Shown piece by piece: positions 22,774 to 36,395 of a stretch of DNA of 64,000 bases. Numbering within the stretch: position 1 is the first letter of the stretch; every line of letters begins with the position of its first letter. The translations under genes were made by a program, and so were the position numbers. The notes under the pieces were generated by a model. It ran no database searches. It worked only from the letters and a program-made list of their open reading frames with translations, and was not told where the DNA came from. The stretch is from Patescibacteria group bacterium (lineage in GTDB: Bacteria; Patescibacteriota; Patescibacteriia; 2-01-FULL-39-33), in NCBI GenBank assembly GCA_041650895.1, contig JBAZKF010000001.1, positions 359,156 to 423,155 on the forward strand, read 5' to 3'.

Positions 22774-22845
<72 letters not shown>

Positions 22846-22934
22846 CTAACCAATCACTGATTAATAATTACTAATTACGAATATAATTATTTTAATTCGT
22901 AATTTGAAATCCGTAATTTGTAATTGACATTTGT

Positions 22935-23007
22935 TGCGGGGGGCGGATTCGAACCGCCGACCTCTTGGTTATGAGCCAAGCGAGCTGCCGGACTGCTCTA
23001 CCCCGCG
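22935..23007 (-). tRNA. tRNA with CAU anticodon and a C1·A72 mismatch (initiator-like tRNA-fMet)
   Basis: Reverse complement reads CGCGGGGTAGAGCAGTCCGGCAGCTCGCTTGGCTCATAACCAAGAGGTCGGCGGTTCGAATCCGCCCCCCGCA. The acceptor stem 5' C pairs against 3' A, as in bacterial initiator tRNA. Confidence 0.7.
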
Positions 23008-23052
23008 ATAATATTTTATTTTCCATCTCTCCCTAAATAGATGAGATTGATG

Positions 23053-23134
23053 TGCCCGAGGAGAGACTCGAACTCTCACATATTGCTATACACGATTTTG
23101 AGTCGTGCGCGTCTACCAGTTCCGCCACTCGGGC
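23053..23134 (-). tRNA. tRNA-Leu (CAA), type II with long variable arm
   Basis: Reverse complement reads GCCCGAGTGGCGGAACTGGTAGACGCGCACGACTCAAAATCGTGTATAGCAATATGTGAGAGTTCGAGTCTCTCCTCGGGCA. Confidence 0.8.
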
Positions 23135-26801: not shown

Positions 26802-27788
26802 TTAGCAAGTATAAGCCAAATTAGCAATTTTTCGTTGTAATTTATAGCTCTGGCCGTGACTCAATAAACCCAAATATGAATTCATGGTTTCCGGGTTATG
26901 ATTTTTCCTCACTCGCCTGAACATCCTTCTTTTACTCGCCGTCCGAAACACCCGATGATCAAAAAAATTCACCCAACCCAGAAAGTCTAAGCCGGGACTT
27001 AAAGTTTTGATAAATAGCTTATCGGGATGAAGCGTCAGTTTCATTTTATCTCTCAAATAAGCATCAACCGATGGAATTATTTTTTCCAAATAATTTTTAT
27101 CATCAGCCATAATCACGAAGTCATCGGCATAGCGGATATAATATTTTACTTTCAGTTTATGCTTAACAAATTGATCAAATCTGTTCATATAAATATTAAC
27201 CAATAACTGCGAAGTTAAATTCCCCAACGGCAAACCTCCGTTAAAACTGTCAATCGCCTCGTCTAATAAACCCAAAATCTTTTTATCCGGAATATACTCG
27301 GCCAGGATATTTTCCAATATCCCATGATCGATATTGGCAAAAAATTTCCTGATGTCACCCTTTAAAATCCAACAAGTGTGGGTGTTATTCTGGCTGGCTT
27401 TGTAAGCAAATTTCTTGAATCTGGCCAAGGCCTTATGCGTGCCCTTGCCCAGCCGGCAGGAATAAGAATCGACGATGAAAGTCCGGTCAAAAAACGGATA
27501 CAAAATCCGATAAATCGCATGATGAACCAACCTATCACTGACCGACGCCTTATGGATTTGCCGCGACTTGGGATCGCAGATCTTAAAGGCCTGGTAGCCG
27601 CCATGGCGATAAGCGCCGGTTGCCAAATCCCGATGCAATGCGATAAGATTATCCATAAGGCGCAATTGGAATTCCTGCACGTCTTTTCTATTCCTTTTGC
27701 CCCTGACAAACTCCTGCCAAGCCAACAATAAATTATCAAGACAGATAATCTCTTCAAAAGTATGGCTCAACTTGATTTTCCCGTTCAT
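26802..27788 (-). CDS. Diversity-generating retroelement (DGR) reverse transcriptase
   Basis: RT domains with a YADD catalytic box (YIRYADDFVIM) and motif 4 LPLGNLTSQLLVNIYM (the DGR-specific xGxxxSQ, not the QGxxSP of group II/retron RTs). 328 aa, no maturase or endonuclease domain. Adjacent TR/VR pairs are present. Confidence 0.9.
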   Translation of the reverse strand: MNGKIKLSHTFEEIICLDNLLLAWQEFVRGKRNRKDVQEFQLRLMDNLIALHRDLATGAYRHGGYQAFKICDPKSRQIHKASVSDRLVHHAIYRILYPFFDRTFIVDSYSCRLGKGTHKALARFKKFAYKASQNNTHTCWILKGDIRKFFANIDHGILENILAEYIPDKKILGLLDEAIDSFNGGLPLGNLTSQLLVNIYMNRFDQFVKHKLKVKYYIRYADDFVIMADDKNYLEKIIPSVDAYLRDKMKLTLHPDKLFIKTLSPGLDFLGWVNFFDHRVFRTASKRRMFRRVRKNHNPETMNSYLGLLSHGQSYKLQRKIANLAYTC

Positions 27789-27815
27789 AATGATTCCTTT
27801 AATTTACCCCCCCCC

Positions 27816-27825
27816 CAACGGAAAA
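27816..27825. repeat. C10 homopolymeric tract between the divergent RT and avd1 genes
   Basis: cccccccccc in an AT-rich intergenic/5' region; a candidate slipped-strand phase-variation site. Confidence 0.6.
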
Positions 27826-27834
27826 TTTATCCCG

Positions 27835-28140
27835 TTGATTCAAAAAACCAAAACGCTATACATAGTATGGCATGGTTACTACCAATCTCTACCCAAAACC
27901 CATAAATACTCATTGGGTCAAAAAATCGACATCTTCTTTATTGAGGCGATTGAAGCTATGGCTACCGCCAGTTTCCTGCCACCACAAGCCAAACCGCCTC
28001 ATATCTGCCTAGCAATTCAAAAAATTGATTTGATAAAAATCATGCTAATGATTCTATGGGAGATAAAGGCGATTGATAATAATAAGTATTTAAATCTATC
28101 GCAACCACTAGACGAAATCGGCCGGATGCTAGGCGGCTAG
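27835..28140 (+). CDS. Avd-like four-helix-bundle (23S rRNA IVS protein family) accessory protein, copy 1 (start uncertain; no in-frame ATG until 27958)
   Basis: The C-terminus …LWEIKAIDNNKYLNLSQPLDEIGRMLGG matches the Avd/four-helix-bundle family C-terminal helix (…EIGkmLggW). It is paralogous to copy 2 with synonymous third-position differences in this frame. It is on the strand opposite to the RT and TR. Confidence 0.45.
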   Translation: MIQKTKTLYIVWHGYYQSLPKTHKYSLGQKIDIFFIEAIEAMATASFLPPQAKPPHICLAIQKIDLIKIMLMILWEIKAIDNNKYLNLSQPLDEIGRMLGG

Positions 28141-28149
28141 TACAACAAA

Positions 28150-28185
28150 CTGACAAAACAAAACTCCCCGGATAAACTCAGGGAG
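28150..28185 (-). terminator. Hairpin CTCCC-N12-GGGGAG plus T-run immediately 3' of TR1 (minus sense): DGR RNA 3' structure or terminator
   Basis: Minus-sense sequence …cgcaac tctctttatttttCTCCCtgagtttatccGGGGAGttttgtttt. The same element follows TR2. Confidence 0.5.
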
Positions 28186-28199
28186 AAAAATAAAGAGAG

Positions 28200-28320
28200 T
28201 TGCGGAGCGCAGCCGGATTATCGACGTTGAAGTCGTTATCAAGCCAGTTGTAGTTCCAGTTCCATCTGTCGCCATTCCAGTACAGGTAACGCACATACAG
28301 GTTGTCGTCCGAGTTGCGAT
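28200..28320 (-). repeat. DGR template repeat TR1 (cognate to VR1 at 28702-28822)
   Basis: 121-nt match to VR1. All 20 mismatches fall on TR adenines in the minus sense (TR AAC, GAC, TAC, AAT or AGA codons against G, D, C, R or F codons in the VR). Minus-sense TR1 encodes …RNSDDNLYVRYLYWNGDRWNWNYNWLDNDFNVDNPAALRN. Confidence 0.9.
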
Positions 28321-28576
28321 TTTCGCAAAATTCCGCCTAAACCACCATCCGTTGATCCGCCGACTGGCGGAATCTCCAGATTGAATCTTATGCGTGAGCT
28401 AAACTCACATAGAACATTGCGCCAAGTATCTTTACTTTAATTAGGCATTAATATATTACGCTACTACTGACATTGATCAGTAATATTCTGAATAATACTA
28501 ACACCGGCTGAGGTAGCGGATAGCCGTAACCAACCGCGGATTTACCTGTGGCTATTTACATAATAGCAGAATAATT

Positions 28577-28619
28577 TGAAAAAATAAATCCTGCACAAGT
28601 CAGATGACCGATGCAGGAT
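28577..28619 (-). terminator. Intrinsic terminator of target gene 1 (hairpin atcctgca…tgcaggat plus T-run on the minus strand)
   Basis: An 8-bp perfect stem followed by TTATTTTTT in the minus sense. Confidence 0.6.
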
Positions 28620-28697: not shown

Positions 28698-29255
28698 CTA
28701 CTTGCGGAGCGCAGCCGGATCACCGACGCCGAAGCCGCCATCAAGCCAGCCGTAGCCCCAGTCCCATCCGCCGCCACCCCAGCACAGGTAACGCACAAAC
28801 AGGCGGTCGTCCGAGTCGCGATAAATAGTCCCCCAAAAGAAAATACATTTGCCTTTCCATTCTTCCGGAATCAACTCGAGATGTGCGAGTAAATAGTCAA
28901 GAACATTAGCGTTCAAGACCAGCTTGCCGGCCAACAACTTACGCAAAGCGTGACCTTTGACGATGTTATTCTTCTGGTCATTGGCCAGATAAAGCTCAAT
29001 CAATGCCGGATTCCACTCCAGTTGACCGCCCTTCTGGTGTTCTTCAACTTTCCAGCCGGACGGAACGAAAGGATGAACGTCGCAGTCAATAATGTACTTG
29101 GTCACGATGATTTCCGCCAAGCCATGCAGCACTTTCTTGAATTCCGCCAAACTCTTAAACTGCTGGAGCTTCGTCATCTCCTCCGGCGTATAACCAGCAG
29201 CTTCAAAAGCATCCATTACCTTGTTGGCTTGGCCTACCGAGTAAAGCGTGGACAT
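28698..29255 (-). CDS. DGR target (variable) protein 1; C-terminal VR at 28702-28822
   Basis: Probable start MSTLYSVGQ… with RBS AGGAGA; the track ORF extends to 29285 via GTG. The C-terminus …FVRYLCWGGGGWDWGYGWLDGGFGVGDPAALRK differs from the TR1-encoded peptide only at Asn/adenine-containing codons. It is paralogous to target 2 (shared core …VLDYL…IPEEWK…FFWGTI…). Confidence 0.85.
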   Translation of the reverse strand: MSTLYSVGQANKVMDAFEAAGYTPEEMTKLQQFKSLAEFKKVLHGLAEIIVTKYIIDCDVHPFVPSGWKVEEHQKGGQLEWNPALIELYLANDQKNNIVKGHALRKLLAGKLVLNANVLDYLLAHLELIPEEWKGKCIFFWGTIYRDSDDRLFVRYLCWGGGGWDWGYGWLDGGFGVGDPAALRK

Positions 29256-29367: not shown

Positions 29368-29455
29368 ATTTTGTCAATAGATTTATCCACTCTACCAACT
29401 AACTAATTATTTTTATCTAAATTTAAACAAAAAATCACCACTATCTATTGGGATA

Positions 29456-29701
29456 ATGGAAGCAATTGCCACGGCCAGTTTCCTGGACAAACTGAGTAAG
29501 TCGCCGTATGTGGAAACAGCGATCAGAAAAACTGATATTTTAAAAATATTATTATTACTTTTGTGGGAGACAAAATCATTAGATAATAATAAATATTTGG
29601 CCTTATCAATTAAGATTGATGAGGTGGGCAAAATGCTTGGCGGCTGGAAAGGACAATTACTAAGTAAAAACTCCCCCGACAATAAAGCGGGAGAGAAATG
29701 A
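29456..29701 (+). CDS. Avd-like four-helix-bundle accessory protein, copy 2 (81 aa)
   Basis: MEAIATASFL…LWETKSLDNNKYLALSIKIDEVGKMLGGW…; resembles the BPP-1 Avd C-terminus (…EVGRILGSW…). A 40-nt upstream element (aaatttaaacaaaaaatcacc…ttgggataATG) is shared with a truncated third copy at 31508-31556. Confidence 0.5.
   Translation: MEAIATASFLDKLSKSPYVETAIRKTDILKILLLLLWETKSLDNNKYLALSIKIDEVGKMLGGWKGQLLSKNSPDNKAGEK
29663..29695 (-). terminator. Hairpin CTCTCCCGC-N-GGGGGAG plus T-run immediately 3' of TR2 (minus sense), homologous to the element after TR1
   Basis: Minus-sense sequence …gcaactcacttcatttCTCTCCCgctttattgtcGGGGGAGttttta. Confidence 0.5.
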
Positions 29702-29707
29702 AGTGAG

Positions 29708-29829
29708 TTGCGAGAACCGCAGCCGGATTATCGACGTTGAAGTCGTTATCAAGCCAGTTATAGTTCTCATTCCACTGGCTGTCGTTCCAATACAAGTAAC
29801 GGACGTAGAGGTTGCCATCAGAGTTGCGG
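29708..29829 (-). repeat. DGR template repeat TR2 (cognate to VR2 at 30184-30305)
   Basis: 122 nt, with no indels against VR2. The minus-sense sequence encodes RNSDGNLYVRYLYWNDSQWNENYNWLDNDFNVDNPAAVLA against the VR2 peptide RRSDGRLYVRCLFWSGSQWRGCYSWLDSGFVGGSPAAVLA. Most mismatches fall at TR adenines, and four non-adenine mismatches cluster at the 3' end (IMH/IMH*-like). Confidence 0.85.
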
Positions 29830-30065
29830 TTGTATGTGGCGCGCCGCCGATATCACTGCCCGTCGAATACTCTCTGGGCTGGATCTTATTTGTGATCTTA
29901 AATCACTTAGCGCTCCGCACCAAGTATCTTCATTTTTGAAGTTTCTACAGGCGCCACACTGCCTGAAGCCTTGACCGCAGGCATTCTCGGCGACTGGACA
30001 CTGGATTCGGTGGCAAGCAGCCATAACCGCTTGCTGATATTCACCTAATACCTTTTTTATTTTAG

Positions 30066-30101
30066 CATAAAAAATAATCCCGAACCATTGCTGATTCGGG
30101 A
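30066..30101 (-). terminator. Intrinsic terminator of target gene 2 (ttcccgaa…ttcggga plus T-run)
   Basis: A 7-bp stem followed by TTATTTTTT in the minus sense. Confidence 0.6.
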
Positions 30102-30169
30102 ATATGTTCAAAAAAATTGCATTAAGGTCAAATTTCCCAAGGATCCATATAGATCCAGGAAATCAAGAC

Positions 30170-30847
30170 CTAAGCGCTGATACTTGCGAGAACCGCAGCG
30201 GGGCTGCCGCCGACGAAGCCGCTATCAAGCCAGCTATAGCACCCACGCCACTGGCTGCCGCTCCAAAACAAGCAACGGACGTAGAGGCGGCCATCAGAGC
30301 GGCGGAAAATTGTGCCCCAGAAAAAGATAAAGATAATATTTCCTTTTTCATTTTTTTCCTTCCACTCTTCGGGGATGTACTCCTGATTGGCCCTAAGAAA
30401 GTCCAGAACGCTTGCCGACAACACCGGCCGGCCGTCAAGTTCTTTACGTAGTTCATGGCCGACAATAAATCGACCGTTAACCTGGAGCGTTGAGCGATAC
30501 AAAACGACTTTCTGTCCGTCAATGTATAAACCGTCAAATCTCTTTTCAATTGAAATCTTGCCCTGGCGGGCATGTTTCTCAACTGTTGCGTCAGTAAATG
30601 GCGGTCGCGGATCATTGTCCGTATCAATTACCGCCCGAAGGATCGGCGTTGTCTGGCGCAGAAATTCCTCGCCGATTTCCTTGAGTTTCTCAACAAAAAA
30701 ACTCTTGCCCGGACCAGTCGCCCAATCAATCACTTCGGCGCCGACCTTGATTTTCTTCAGAGTTGCGGCTATCAGCGAGAATAGATTGGCGAGCGCCGCC
30801 ACAAACTGCCCGACTTCCTTCCAATTCAAACTCTTTTTCGTCGACAT
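30170..30847 (-). CDS. DGR target (variable) protein 2; C-terminal VR at 30184-30305
   Basis: 225 aa; paralogous to target 1, and its C-terminus matches the TR2 product apart from differences at Asn codons. Confidence 0.85.
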   Translation of the reverse strand: MSTKKSLNWKEVGQFVAALANLFSLIAATLKKIKVGAEVIDWATGPGKSFFVEKLKEIGEEFLRQTTPILRAVIDTDNDPRPPFTDATVEKHARQGKISIEKRFDGLYIDGQKVVLYRSTLQVNGRFIVGHELRKELDGRPVLSASVLDFLRANQEYIPEEWKEKNEKGNIIFIFFWGTIFRRSDGRLYVRCLFWSGSQWRGCYSWLDSGFVGGSPAAVLASISA

Positions 30848-30974
30848 CTTTCACGTCCTTTCTATCTCCCCCATTACTGGCTCCTGGCCAACTCCGGATT
30901 GATATATTGAACTTCATGCAACAATTGGCTCTGCCGGAATGACAGCTTGCCAATATACTATTTTGTATCATACA

Positions 30975-31003
30975 TCAATAATTTTGTCAAGGGGTTTATC
31001 CAC
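30975..31003 (-). promoter_or_regulatory. Promoter of target gene 2 (TTGACA -35 box; weaker -10), with a TTTATCCACTCC motif upstream as for target 1
   Basis: Reverse complement reads …gtggataaaccccTTGACAaaattattgatgtatgaTACAAA. Confidence 0.4.
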
Positions 31004-36007: not shown

Positions 36008-36395
36008 GGGGATGTTTTGCTTTGATAGAGATAATGTTTTCCTATTAGCAAACCGAGCATGGCGGCAAACTCGTTAATCCGTCGCCACAGGCAAAAATGC
36101 CAAAAACATCTTAGCTAAAGTCCAATCTGCTTTTAGCAGCCTGGCTTTGGCTCCTGTTCTCGCTTAATATCGAGAACCATCGCCGCGCCCATTCCCGGTA
36201 AGCGCTAAGCGGTGTTATATTATCGGGATCGCCACTGACGTCGCCAGAGCGCCCTTGGTCAAACTTTTCTGGATCGCTTAAGGATTTTTTGCCGCTTTTT
36301 CAGTCCTTAAGTCAGAATATAAAACGGCTAAGTTTGTATCACTTTAGGGGATAATTTATTTCTAGACAGGGGCTCATTACCCCTCATCTCCACAC
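36008..36395 (+). ncRNA. ssrA: Candidate tmRNA (ssrA) downstream of smpB
   Basis: The 5' GGGGATG pairs with the 3' CATCTCC, followed by a discriminator A (acceptor stem). An internal ORF …AKNILAKVQSAFSSLALAPVLA ends with TAA inside the loop of the hairpin gttctcg-cttaatat-cgagaac. A T-arm-like GGGG-ctcatta-CCCC lies just before the 3' end. The length, about 388 nt, is typical. The region is a 575-nt non-coding gap. Confidence 0.45.

Follow-up and report, generated by a model that had tools for sequence, protein, structure and literature searches.

Covarying helices bracket the template repeats of a diversity-generating retroelement with a duplicated cassette in a patescibacterial genome

In what form is the template presented to the reverse transcriptase (RT) in the diversity-generating retroelements (DGRs) of the candidate phyla radiation (CPR)? 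The question is raised by a 64,000-nt stretch of DNA from a Patescibacteria group bacterium (contig JBAZKF010000001.1, positions 359,156 to 423,155; the whole stretch is called the window). The locus of interest in the window is a DGR with a tandemly duplicated cassette of target gene and template repeat (TR), and it has two TRs and a single RT. The bacteria that carry such a locus are tiny groundwater members of the CPR. A first-pass annotation of the window had noticed hairpins on both sides of each TR and had taken them as a sign of a stand-alone, structured TR RNA. The reading favoured here, with confidence somewhat better than even, is that the locus encodes two paralogous DGR template RNAs of ~390-400 nt, which would be a retron-like circular permutation of the BPP-1 DGR RNA. 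The structure itself is very probable; P0, P1-P3 and the other helices described below all covary.

Two paralogous copies alone cannot show more than shared ancestry, and relatives were therefore needed. These were 80 loci from GTDB species representatives, with RTs 57-83% identical to the RT of the window. Sequence upstream of the TR was present in 69 of the 80 loci; the other 11 were without it and hence without a match to the upstream domain.

The hairpin upstream of each TR, named P2 here, is one helix of a larger conserved domain made of three helices (P1, P2 and P3). The parts of this domain in the window are the following.

29834..29920, minus strand: 5' domain of cassette 1, covariance-model match of 106 bits (E 5e-21)
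29920..29909 with 29845..29834, minus strand: P1 of cassette 1
29906..29902 with 29896..29892, minus strand: P2 of cassette 1, GUGAU-uuaag-AUCAC, the 5' hairpin of the first-pass annotation
29879..29875 with 29862..29858, minus strand: P3 of cassette 1, loop AGAGUAUUCGA
28323..28422, minus strand: 5' domain of cassette 2, covariance-model match of 85 bits (E 2e-16), covariation in the family
28422..28411 with 28334..28323, minus strand: P1 of cassette 2
28408..28404 with 28398..28394, minus strand: P2 of cassette 2, GUGAG-uuuag-CUCAC, the 5' hairpin of the first-pass annotation
28381..28377 with 28351..28347, minus strand: P3 of cassette 2, with an additional hairpin (28370..28357) within the loop

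The first-pass annotation had reported P2 in both cassettes, with a compensatory change between them. Both hairpins are present and the swap is genuine, the fifth pair being G-C in cassette 2 and U-A in cassette 1, while the positions given for them (28410-28426 and 29900-29916) run 8-16 nt too high. The distance from the hairpin to the TR is ~63-75 nt in each cassette. Among the 69 homologous loci, P2 shows compensatory changes at 5/5 pairs, with 92.8% of the cells paired; covariation is strong in the TR flanks in general, P2 included.

Read towards the TR, the conserved elements are an A-run, AUGAAGA, UACUUGG, P1, P2, AAUAMGAUACAG, P3, a segment beginning with AGUGG and the P1 3' strand. P1 is a 12-bp helix, P2 a 5-bp helix and AAUAMGAUACAG a conserved 12-nt single strand, and the P3 family loop is AGAGUAUUCAA, with an inserted hairpin in some loci. 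All three helices are predicted by RNAalifold, with compensatory changes at 21 of 23 predicted pairs. In a 45-sequence alignment of the domain, 95.5% of the cells are paired (31-52% with slid partners), 254 cells carry double changes (76±11 after shuffling, the observed value being reached in 0/500 shuffles) and 20/22 pairs have a compensatory change. A covariance model built from the trimmed alignment of the domain found exactly two copies in the 64-kb window and one copy in 69 of the 80 loci, 26 of them outside the seed alignment, always on the RT strand and upstream of the avd gene. The domain stands before the TR in 69/69 loci with sufficient upstream sequence. Across the 69 matches, whose alignment was fitted to the covariance model and hence leans towards structure, 95.0% of the cells are paired and 411 show double changes, against 113±15 after shuffling. 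The closing pair of P1 is a conserved U-G in 63/69 matches, which fits an RNA of one strand and not a DNA palindrome; many other P1 pairs are also G-U. As a single sequence, the cassette 2 domain folds at -39.8 kcal/mol (z -3.9). The P1-P2-P3 element is thus universal in the sampled RT family.

The hairpin inserted in the P3 loop of cassette 2 (28370-28357, minus strand) reads CCGCCAGUCGGCGG and is missing from cassette 1; comparable insertions are found in the related loci L001, L024, L032, L044, L052, L060 and L080. A pseudoknot between GAUACUU and the P3 loop GAGUAUU was considered and rejected, as loci with AAGC in place of AAGA retain the loop without compensation.

The two sides of the TR are joined by a long-range helix, P0. 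Its upstream strand, typically AAAUGAAGA, consists of the 9 nt that precede UACUUGG, and its downstream strand, typically UCUUCAUUU, of the 9 nt that precede the 3' hairpin. Its strands in the window, with the TRs that they enclose, are given below.

29927..29935, minus strand: P0 5' strand of cassette 1, AAAUGAAGA, followed by the conserved linker UACUUGG at 29926..29920
29829..29708, minus strand: TR1, repeat partner of the variable repeat VR1
29696..29704, minus strand: P0 3' strand of cassette 1, ACUUCAUUU, 3 nt after the end of TR1
28429..28437, minus strand: P0 5' strand of cassette 2, AAGUAAAGA, followed by the linker UACUUGG at 28428..28422
28319..28200, minus strand: TR2, repeat partner of the variable repeat VR2
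28188..28196, minus strand: P0 3' strand of cassette 2, UCUUUAUUU, 3 nt after the end of TR2

Between the two cassettes of the window, P0 shows a compensatory change (AUGAAG/CUUCAU versus GUAAAG/CUUUAU). In a MAFFT-based alignment of the relatives from which the TR was removed, P0 is 89.6% paired, against 47-55% with slid partners, and contains 28 double-change cells, against 7.2±2.2 after shuffling (0/500). Over 62 loci, the cognate strands have a duplex energy of -5.09 kcal/mol and permuted partners one of -2.99±0.21 kcal/mol (z -9.9). These two analyses replaced a fixed-offset comparison (9 nt before NANTYGG versus 9 nt before the hairpin), which gave 6.6/9 pairs against 6.0 for mismatched loci and was too rigid, registers shifting by 1-2 nt, and too A/U-rich. 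Divergent subfamilies have P0 strands of unrelated sequence, such as AAUACAG/CUGUAUU, AAAAAUAA/UUAUUUUU and CUGUUGC/GCAACGG, and the full-length fold of the cassette 2 RNA predicts P0 de novo in both the minimum free energy (MFE) and the centroid structure.

The homology between TR and VR is enclosed by P1 on one side and P0 on the other. In the 58 loci with a VR on the same contig, this homology starts a median of 2.5 nt (interquartile range, IQR, 2-4.75) past the last P1 nucleotide and ends a median of 10 nt (IQR 9-13) short of the hairpin, where the 9-nt P0 strand has its edge. The corresponding gaps in the window are 4-5 nt from P1 to the TR and 3 nt from the TR to P0.

Three other features around P0 were set aside. 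A local hairpin, ACUUCA-AAAAA-UGAAGA (29943-29928, minus strand), is possible in cassette 1 and in many relatives; as a conserved element, its core CUUCA-AAAA-UGAAG was rejected, since subfamilies with a different P0 sequence do not retain it. Competing with P0, the hairpin may represent an intermediate of co-transcriptional folding. A small open reading frame starting from the ATG in AAAUGAAGA was dismissed because this codon varies, with ACG, AUA and GUA among its variants. The U-tract could plausibly pair with the A-run that precedes P0, but each of the two is homopolymeric, and changes of G to A or to C in the U-tract are uncompensated.

On the 3' side, each TR is followed by a second hairpin and a U-tract.

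29695..29671, minus strand: 3' hairpin of cassette 1, CUCUCCCG-ctttattgt-CGGGGGAG, then UUUUUACUU
29670..29662, minus strand: U-tract of cassette 1, directly after the 3' hairpin
28185..28164, minus strand: 3' hairpin of cassette 2, CUCCCUG-agtttatc-CGGGGAG, then UUUUGUUUUG
28163..28154, minus strand: U-tract of cassette 2, directly after the 3' hairpin

For these hairpins the coordinates of the first-pass annotation (28164-28185 and 29671-29695) were exact, including the T-rich run after each. In isolation they fold at -11.3 kcal/mol (cassette 2, z -2.7) and -14.1 kcal/mol (cassette 1, z -3.8), and a terminator scan of the window flags that of cassette 2 as terminator-like. In the window, 12-14 nt separate the TR from the start of the hairpin. 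A GC-rich stem-loop with a U-tract behind it, both on the transcribed strand, has the form of an intrinsic terminator, which the hairpin is predicted to be. Among 72 avd-bearing entries (70 related loci and the two window cassettes), a hairpin with a T-tract was found after the TR in 67, by a finder that selects for pairing; in these entries the stem has a median of 9 bp and the loop one of 5 nt, and 8/9 of the next bases are T. The stems have 21 distinct starts, and ~60% are of the form CUCYCC...GGRGAG. In a MAFFT alignment of the relatives, 7/8 hairpin pairs show changes on both sides. As many as 58 of 599 stem pairs are G-U, which would be A-C mismatches if read on the avd strand, and the structure is therefore specific to the TR-sense RNA. 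The 3' hairpin would be a terminator and, from its position, probably also the Avd-binding stem-loop; binding of Avd as such is held with rather less than even confidence.

A further structured region, the leader, precedes P0, and putative transcription signals are found next to it.

30101..30078, minus strand: target-1 terminator, after target gene 1
30059..30067, minus strand: -10-like box of the TR1 RNA, TGcTAAAAT, extended, just past the target-1 terminator
29940..30052, minus strand: leader of cassette 1, modules A (30052..30003) and B (30002..29940), apical loops GGUUAUGGCU and GGUCAAGGCU
~28617..28588, minus strand: target-2 terminator-like hairpin
28560..28568, minus strand: -10-like box of the TR2 RNA, TGcTATTAT, extended, past the target-2 terminator-like hairpin
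28444..28547, minus strand: leader of cassette 2, divergent, modules 28547..28511 and 28505..28444 from the full-length fold

About 250 nt of non-coding DNA lie between the target-1 terminator and TR1. The leader begins with GGYAGUAGG, and of the 34 leader pairs that RNAalifold predicts from a set of 24 sequences, 21 show compensatory changes. Upstream of the leader start, 32/33 loci have a TANNNT box whose end is 4-12 nt away, against 15% of control positions, and in 20 of these 32 loci the box is TG-extended (TGnTAnnnT). In relatives, the loop GRYYAMGGYU occurs twice per leader.

The -10 box, the leader, the 3' hairpin with its U-tract and the antisense avd argue for a separate RNA in each cassette. 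The proposal of a stand-alone TR RNA with its own terminator-like 3' end is supported to this extent, by the box, the hairpin with its U-tract and the covariation in the flanks, and a transcript of ~390-400 nt per cassette is considered likely. The TR1 RNA would run from ~30052 to 29662 and the TR2 RNA from ~28553 to 28154, both on the minus strand. Some read-through from the TR RNA into the RT may occur and would be compatible with the data.

What could an RNA of this shape do? The BPP-1 DGR RNA consists of the avd 3' end, the TR and a 140-nt spacer (Sp), with an Avd-binding stem-loop after the TR, at the 5' end of the spacer (Handa et al. 2018 NAR; Handa et al., bioRxiv 10.1101/2023.10.23.563531, probably the study that Nature published in 2025). 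In this RNA two neighbouring duplexes frame the looped-out TR: the template:primer duplex, formed by TR117-129 and Sp47-56 and primed from the 2'-OH of Sp A56, and the 'cPRT Stop' duplex, formed by the avd 3' end and Sp59-70. The stop strand leads into a short stem-loop, which is followed by unpaired nucleotides, the single-stranded Thumb Ring and the bRT-binding stem-loop (bioRxiv 10.1101/2023.10.23.563531). In the CPR RNA the TR is likewise looped out between two neighbouring helices, and a primer-side strand, a short linker and a stop-side strand lie on one continuous strand, their partner strands following in the order P1 3' strand, TR, P0 3' strand. The stop-side strand is again followed by a short stem-loop, A-rich nucleotides, a single strand of ~12 nt and a further stem-loop. 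A stem-loop also stands right after the TR, and the partner proteins are an RT and a bAvd-like protein. In this comparison, P0 would correspond to the TR:Sp template:primer duplex, P1 to the cPRT Stop duplex, P2 with the A-rich stretch to the stop stem-loop, the 12-nt single strand to the Thumb Ring, P3 to the bRT-binding stem-loop and the 3' hairpin to the Avd-binding stem-loop. P0 is a covarying duplex that joins the regions upstream and downstream of the TR, as in BPP-1; its upstream strand is ~110-125 nt from the TR and its downstream strand adjoins the TR, a position that fits the template:primer and not the stop duplex. The first-pass annotation had suggested that the 3' hairpin may correspond to the spacer structure on which priming depends in BPP-1; its position does fit a spacer element, the Avd-binding stem-loop, while the analogue of the priming duplex is more likely P0.

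Unlike the BPP-1 RNA, the CPR RNA is circularly permuted: its RT-side elements precede the TR, with P1 closing them, and its end would come directly behind the post-TR stem-loop. A structured spacer between TR and RT, with a priming site and RT-binding elements, was not found, the conserved domain being upstream of the TR. Further differences are the linker (6-7 nt, UACUUGG, versus 2 nt in BPP-1), a P0 3' strand that is not part of the TR/VR homology, the extra two-hairpin leader and the avd gene on the opposite strand. No sequence similarity to the BPP-1 RNA was detectable, and Rfam RT-10 gave no match.

The permuted order is that of a retron. In retrons, flanking inverted repeats hybridise and one to three hairpins precede the template; synthesis starts at the 3' repeat, beside a conserved nucleotide just after the 5' repeat, proceeds in the direction of the 5' end and halts before the hairpins (PMC7736814). 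As in the retron msr-msd, the terminal inverted repeats of the CPR RNA pair (P0), and hairpins (P1-P3) and then the template (TR) lie between them. In contrast to retrons, the RT is one of the DGR clade, with Avd as its partner, the TR that serves as template has a cognate VR with adenine-specific mismatches to it, and the RNA is not obviously co-transcribed before the RT, an antisense avd intervening; a branched multicopy single-stranded DNA (msDNA) primed from a conserved G is a mark of retrons. The resemblance is one of topology and not of membership, and the TR/VR pair and the avd argue for a DGR.

These comparisons lead to the following model. Each RNA would have its own -10 box, followed by the two-module leader, the P0 5' strand, UACUUGG, the P1-P3 domain, a gap of 2-5 nt, the TR, ~3 nt, the P0 3' strand and the 3' hairpin with its U-tract. 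Hairpin and U-tract are antisense to the C-terminal codons of the convergent avd. The TR RNA would be transcribed independently and end at the hairpin and U-tract, and an RT-Avd complex would bind the P1-P3 domain and possibly the 3' hairpin too. P0 would serve as primer:template duplex and P1 as the stop. By setting the 3' edge of the TR beside a priming nucleotide, which could be the last P0 nucleotide or one of the neighbouring UA, acting through its 2'-OH, P0 would allow cDNA synthesis to cross the TR and halt at P1; the UA next to the P0 5' strand, the start of UACUUGG, is nearly invariant. The functional roles are inferred from position and covariation. For P0 as the priming duplex the chances are judged close to even, slightly on the lower side. 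The wider proposal, that the DGRs of CPR architecture B3 use a permuted, retron-like RNA with 2'-OH priming upstream of the TR, a stop at P1 and a branched RNA-cDNA junction 5' of the template, where BPP-1 has it on the 3' side, is put forward more tentatively still.

Several points weigh against this model. The functional assignments rest on position and topology. The TR/VR homology stops just short of the P0 3' strand, whereas the template strand of BPP-1 is inside the TR (TR117-129). The last P0 pair is variable (of 45 sequences, 31 have A-U, 5 have C-G and 8 have no pair there) and does not single out a priming nucleotide. In the MFE fold of cassette 1, P0 has a competitor in the local hairpin CUUCA-AAAA-UGAAG. 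With an interrupted U-tract (UUUUGUUUU) and moderate stems, read-through into the antisense avd and the RT may occur. Finally, the alignments hold kindred sequences, and the shuffle controls keep the phylogenetic signal and overstate significance; the slid-partner and permuted-partner controls address complementarity and are more relevant.

Other explanations of the same features were weighed. The likeness of the two cassettes could simply reflect a recent tandem duplication, with the single 'compensatory' change due to chance. The cassettes are plainly paralogous (78% identity over ~600 nt), the avd1 remnant shows a segmental duplication, and one swapped pair has no statistical weight; the same helices are nevertheless formed by many different sequences in the 69 independent loci, and changes at all five P2 pairs mean that this reading, to which hardly any credence is given, is already refuted by the family covariation. 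Nor is it at all probable that a dimeric regulator uses the 5' palindrome as its DNA operator or that AAGATACTTGG is a promoter. GTGAKTTWAGMTCAC is a near-perfect inverted repeat, and GATACT is similar to a -10 box and has, in some loci, TAGACA 16 nt ahead of it, but P2 is nested in P1 with its U-G closing pair and many other G-U pairs, and a better -10 box lies ~125 nt farther upstream. The promoter was ruled out because the 'A' of the putative -10 box (GATACT) is C in many loci and covaries with G in the P0 3' strand. A different duplex between the two sides of the TR follows from the CPR prediction of Handa et al., their 'stop duplex' for these genomes, in which AAUGGGCAGU (within 40 nt upstream) would pair with GCUGUCCAUU (48-57 nt downstream). 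Complementarity is perfect (10/10) in one related locus, L010, and Table S3 of that study lists an Azambacteria genome with identical hairpin and duplex sequences (bioRxiv 10.1101/2023.10.23.563531). Across 46 loci, however, the best 10-nt score is 8.63, against 8.57 for mismatched loci and 8.53 after shuffling, and the upstream segment is the P3 3' strand, which covaries with its local partner. GCUGUCCAUU is also the antisense of the avd codons for WNGQL, and the duplex would need read-through of the hairpin. Being no better than either control, this pairing of the P3 3' strand was rejected, and it is considered quite improbable.

Two further alternatives concern the 3' hairpin. It could be kept because the opposite strand codes for the C-terminal tail of Avd (...KQNSP...) and not for its RNA structure: the avd frame enters or crosses the hairpin in 60/67 entries, KQN being the antisense of UUUUGUUUU and NSP that of the hairpin 3' arm. 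Against this, the stop has no fixed position (in or across the loop in 25 entries, in an arm in 9, past the hairpin in 26 and ahead of it in 7), the tails are widely divergent among entries, and the pairing survives both-side changes and the 58 G-U pairs that would be A-C mismatches on the avd strand. Moreover, avd2 of the window stops before a hairpin that is still intact; coding constraint is therefore not the explanation of the hairpin, and this reading is regarded as very unlikely. It could also be an intrinsic terminator only, which parts the convergent transcripts of TR RNA and avd and has no role in reverse transcription or with Avd. Its form is classic, with a GC-rich stem of median 9 bp and 8/9 T after it, and in some subfamilies the stem sequence is free to vary (21 stem starts), as for a generic terminator. 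A mere terminator would not explain why the hairpin always adjoins the P0 3' strand, why the end of its 3' arm is 27-29 nt from the avd GG codon in 40/67 entries, or why ~60% of the stems have a common sequence. Stem-loops at the same position occur in 207/278 Avd-containing DGRs, and the BPP-1 counterpart contacts all five Avd protomers (Handa et al., bioRxiv 10.1101/2023.10.23.563531). The terminator-only reading is unlikely on balance, although it is the strongest of these alternatives. The terminator and Avd-binding roles are compatible and not mutually exclusive, and the permuted template RNA, with the 3' hairpin as its end, is retained as the preferred reading.

Part of this picture was already known: the B3 gene order (Wu et al. 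2018, PMC5758913), the concept of a DGR RNA, and the CPR post-TR stem-loop (Handa et al.). [quoted passage not shown] Table S3 of Handa et al. lists CPR post-TR stem-loops as putatively Avd-binding, among them CUCUCCCUAUCUUACGGGAGAG, 13-34 nt after the TR in an Azambacteria genome, which is identical to the L010 hairpin. Their span of 40 nt upstream and 100 nt downstream excludes the P0 5' strand and the whole P1-P3 domain. The 5' domain and P0 appear to be undescribed, as no description of them or of the leader was found in the searchable literature (Paul et al. 2017 was outside its coverage).

Rfam RT-7 (RF03028) and RT-9 (RF03080) are RT-associated RNA motifs (Weinberg et al. 2017, PMC5737381), and their 5' hairpin, with a GGUCAAGGC-type apical loop and an AGAGU-type internal loop, resembles module B of the leader. 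RT-7 matched module B of cassette 2 (28492..28439) at 26.6 bits (E 0.001, gathering threshold 116.8) and RT-9 that of cassette 1 at 21.4 bits (E 2.5, gathering threshold 46.1), in both cases over the hairpin only. None of the Rfam RT families matched at gathering level in the window or in 16 related loci, or with E<0.1 in 8 more. Membership of RT-7, RT-9 or RT-10 was therefore rejected, the first two being below threshold and RT-10 without a match. The P0-P3 domain had no Rfam match, and Rfam is without a model for the CPR template RNA. The leader hairpins with these sub-threshold matches (28492-28439 and 29985-29931, minus strand) carry the loops GAUCAAUGUC and GGUCAAGGC, and may represent a protein-binding module shared by RT-associated RNAs.

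Architecture B3 (CPR) is the most abundant DGR class and CPR bacteria hold a large share of known DGRs, while the mechanism has been solved only for the differently arranged RNA of a Bordetella phage. A template bracketed by two covarying helices, with a domain upstream that looks protein-binding, leads to predictions of RNA ends, of the start and stop of the cDNA and of nucleotides to mutate. If true, permuted priming would link the architectures of DGRs and retrons, and the arrangement suggests that the priming geometries of the two are versions of a single design. In metagenomes, TRs and orphan TR cassettes could also be better annotated with the covariance model.

The genes and repeats of the locus are as follows.

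30847..30170, minus strand: target gene 1, in cassette 1, holding VR1
30305..30184, minus strand: VR1, within target gene 1
29456..29701, plus strand: avd1 remnant, N-terminal ~45 aa gone, frame running antisense through the 3' hairpin (...GGWKGQLLSKNSPDNKAGEK*)
29255..28698, minus strand: target gene 2, in cassette 2, directly after cassette 1, holding VR2
28821..28702, minus strand: VR2, within target gene 2
27835..28140, plus strand: avd2 (bAvd-like), full-length, convergent with the TR2 RNA and divergent from the RT
26802..27788, minus strand: DGR reverse transcriptase (RVT_1, E 1e-22)

The assignment to the DGRs follows from the repeats and the RT, with avd2 as a candidate accessory gene. 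TR2 and VR2 differ at 21 of 120 nt, all 21 at TR adenines, and TR1 and VR1 at 24 of 122 nt, 20 of them at TR adenines, so that the differences fall at TR adenines in both cassettes with four exceptions. The RT adjoining the TR is of DGR type and contains LGNLTSQLLVN, whose SQ motif we take to be a mark of DGR RTs. It has more than 8000 homologues at E<1e-40, and those with names are from Patescibacteria (CPR). The avd2 product matches PF22296 (bAvd-like) over its full length with E 3.5e-8 and 34.3 bits, under the curated cut-off of 40. An avd homologue was found in every related locus fetched; it is antisense in every locus with upstream sequence and starts ~45 nt from the RT start. Two paralogous TR RNAs would serve one RT (26802..27788) and one intact avd.

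Cassettes 1 and 2 are paralogous, with a mean column identity of 78% across ~600 nt. The unit of target, TR, hairpin and avd 3' end (29377-30985, ~1.6 kb) is a tandem segmental duplication, as indicated by the avd1 remnant in which cassette 1 ends. Each of the 69 related loci with a covariance-model match has a single TR RNA within the fetched flanks. The four non-adenine mismatches of TR1/VR1 are grouped near GTCGATAATCC, and TR2/VR2 has none; cassette 1 may be less active or decaying, though its RNA domain scores higher (106 versus 85 bits). The stop codon TAG of avd2 (28138-28140, plus strand) stands where 66/67 related entries have a conserved Trp codon (GGW...). Consequently avd2 is without the C-terminal tail (~6-25 residues in relatives) that is coded antisense to the U-tract and hairpin.

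The gap of ~45 nt between the divergent starts of avd and RT contains a homopolymer at 27807-27816, C10 on the plus strand and G10 on the RT strand. The G10 tract is 18 nt upstream of the RT ATG (27788), and the C10 is 18 nt upstream of the avd TTG (27835). The tract looks like a slipped-strand phase-variation switch for the expression of RT and avd; a text search of the literature found no paper that ties DGRs to such poly-G tracts. A run of G6 to G13 occurs at the same place in 64/73 loci, and (GA)n or (CTGG)n in five others. Elsewhere, only 4 G/C runs of at least 7 were counted in 575 kb of loci, and that at 27807-27816 is the sole one in the 64-kb window. The window also contains a tmRNA gene and three tRNA genes, at 36008-36395 (plus strand) and 22774-23134 (minus strand).

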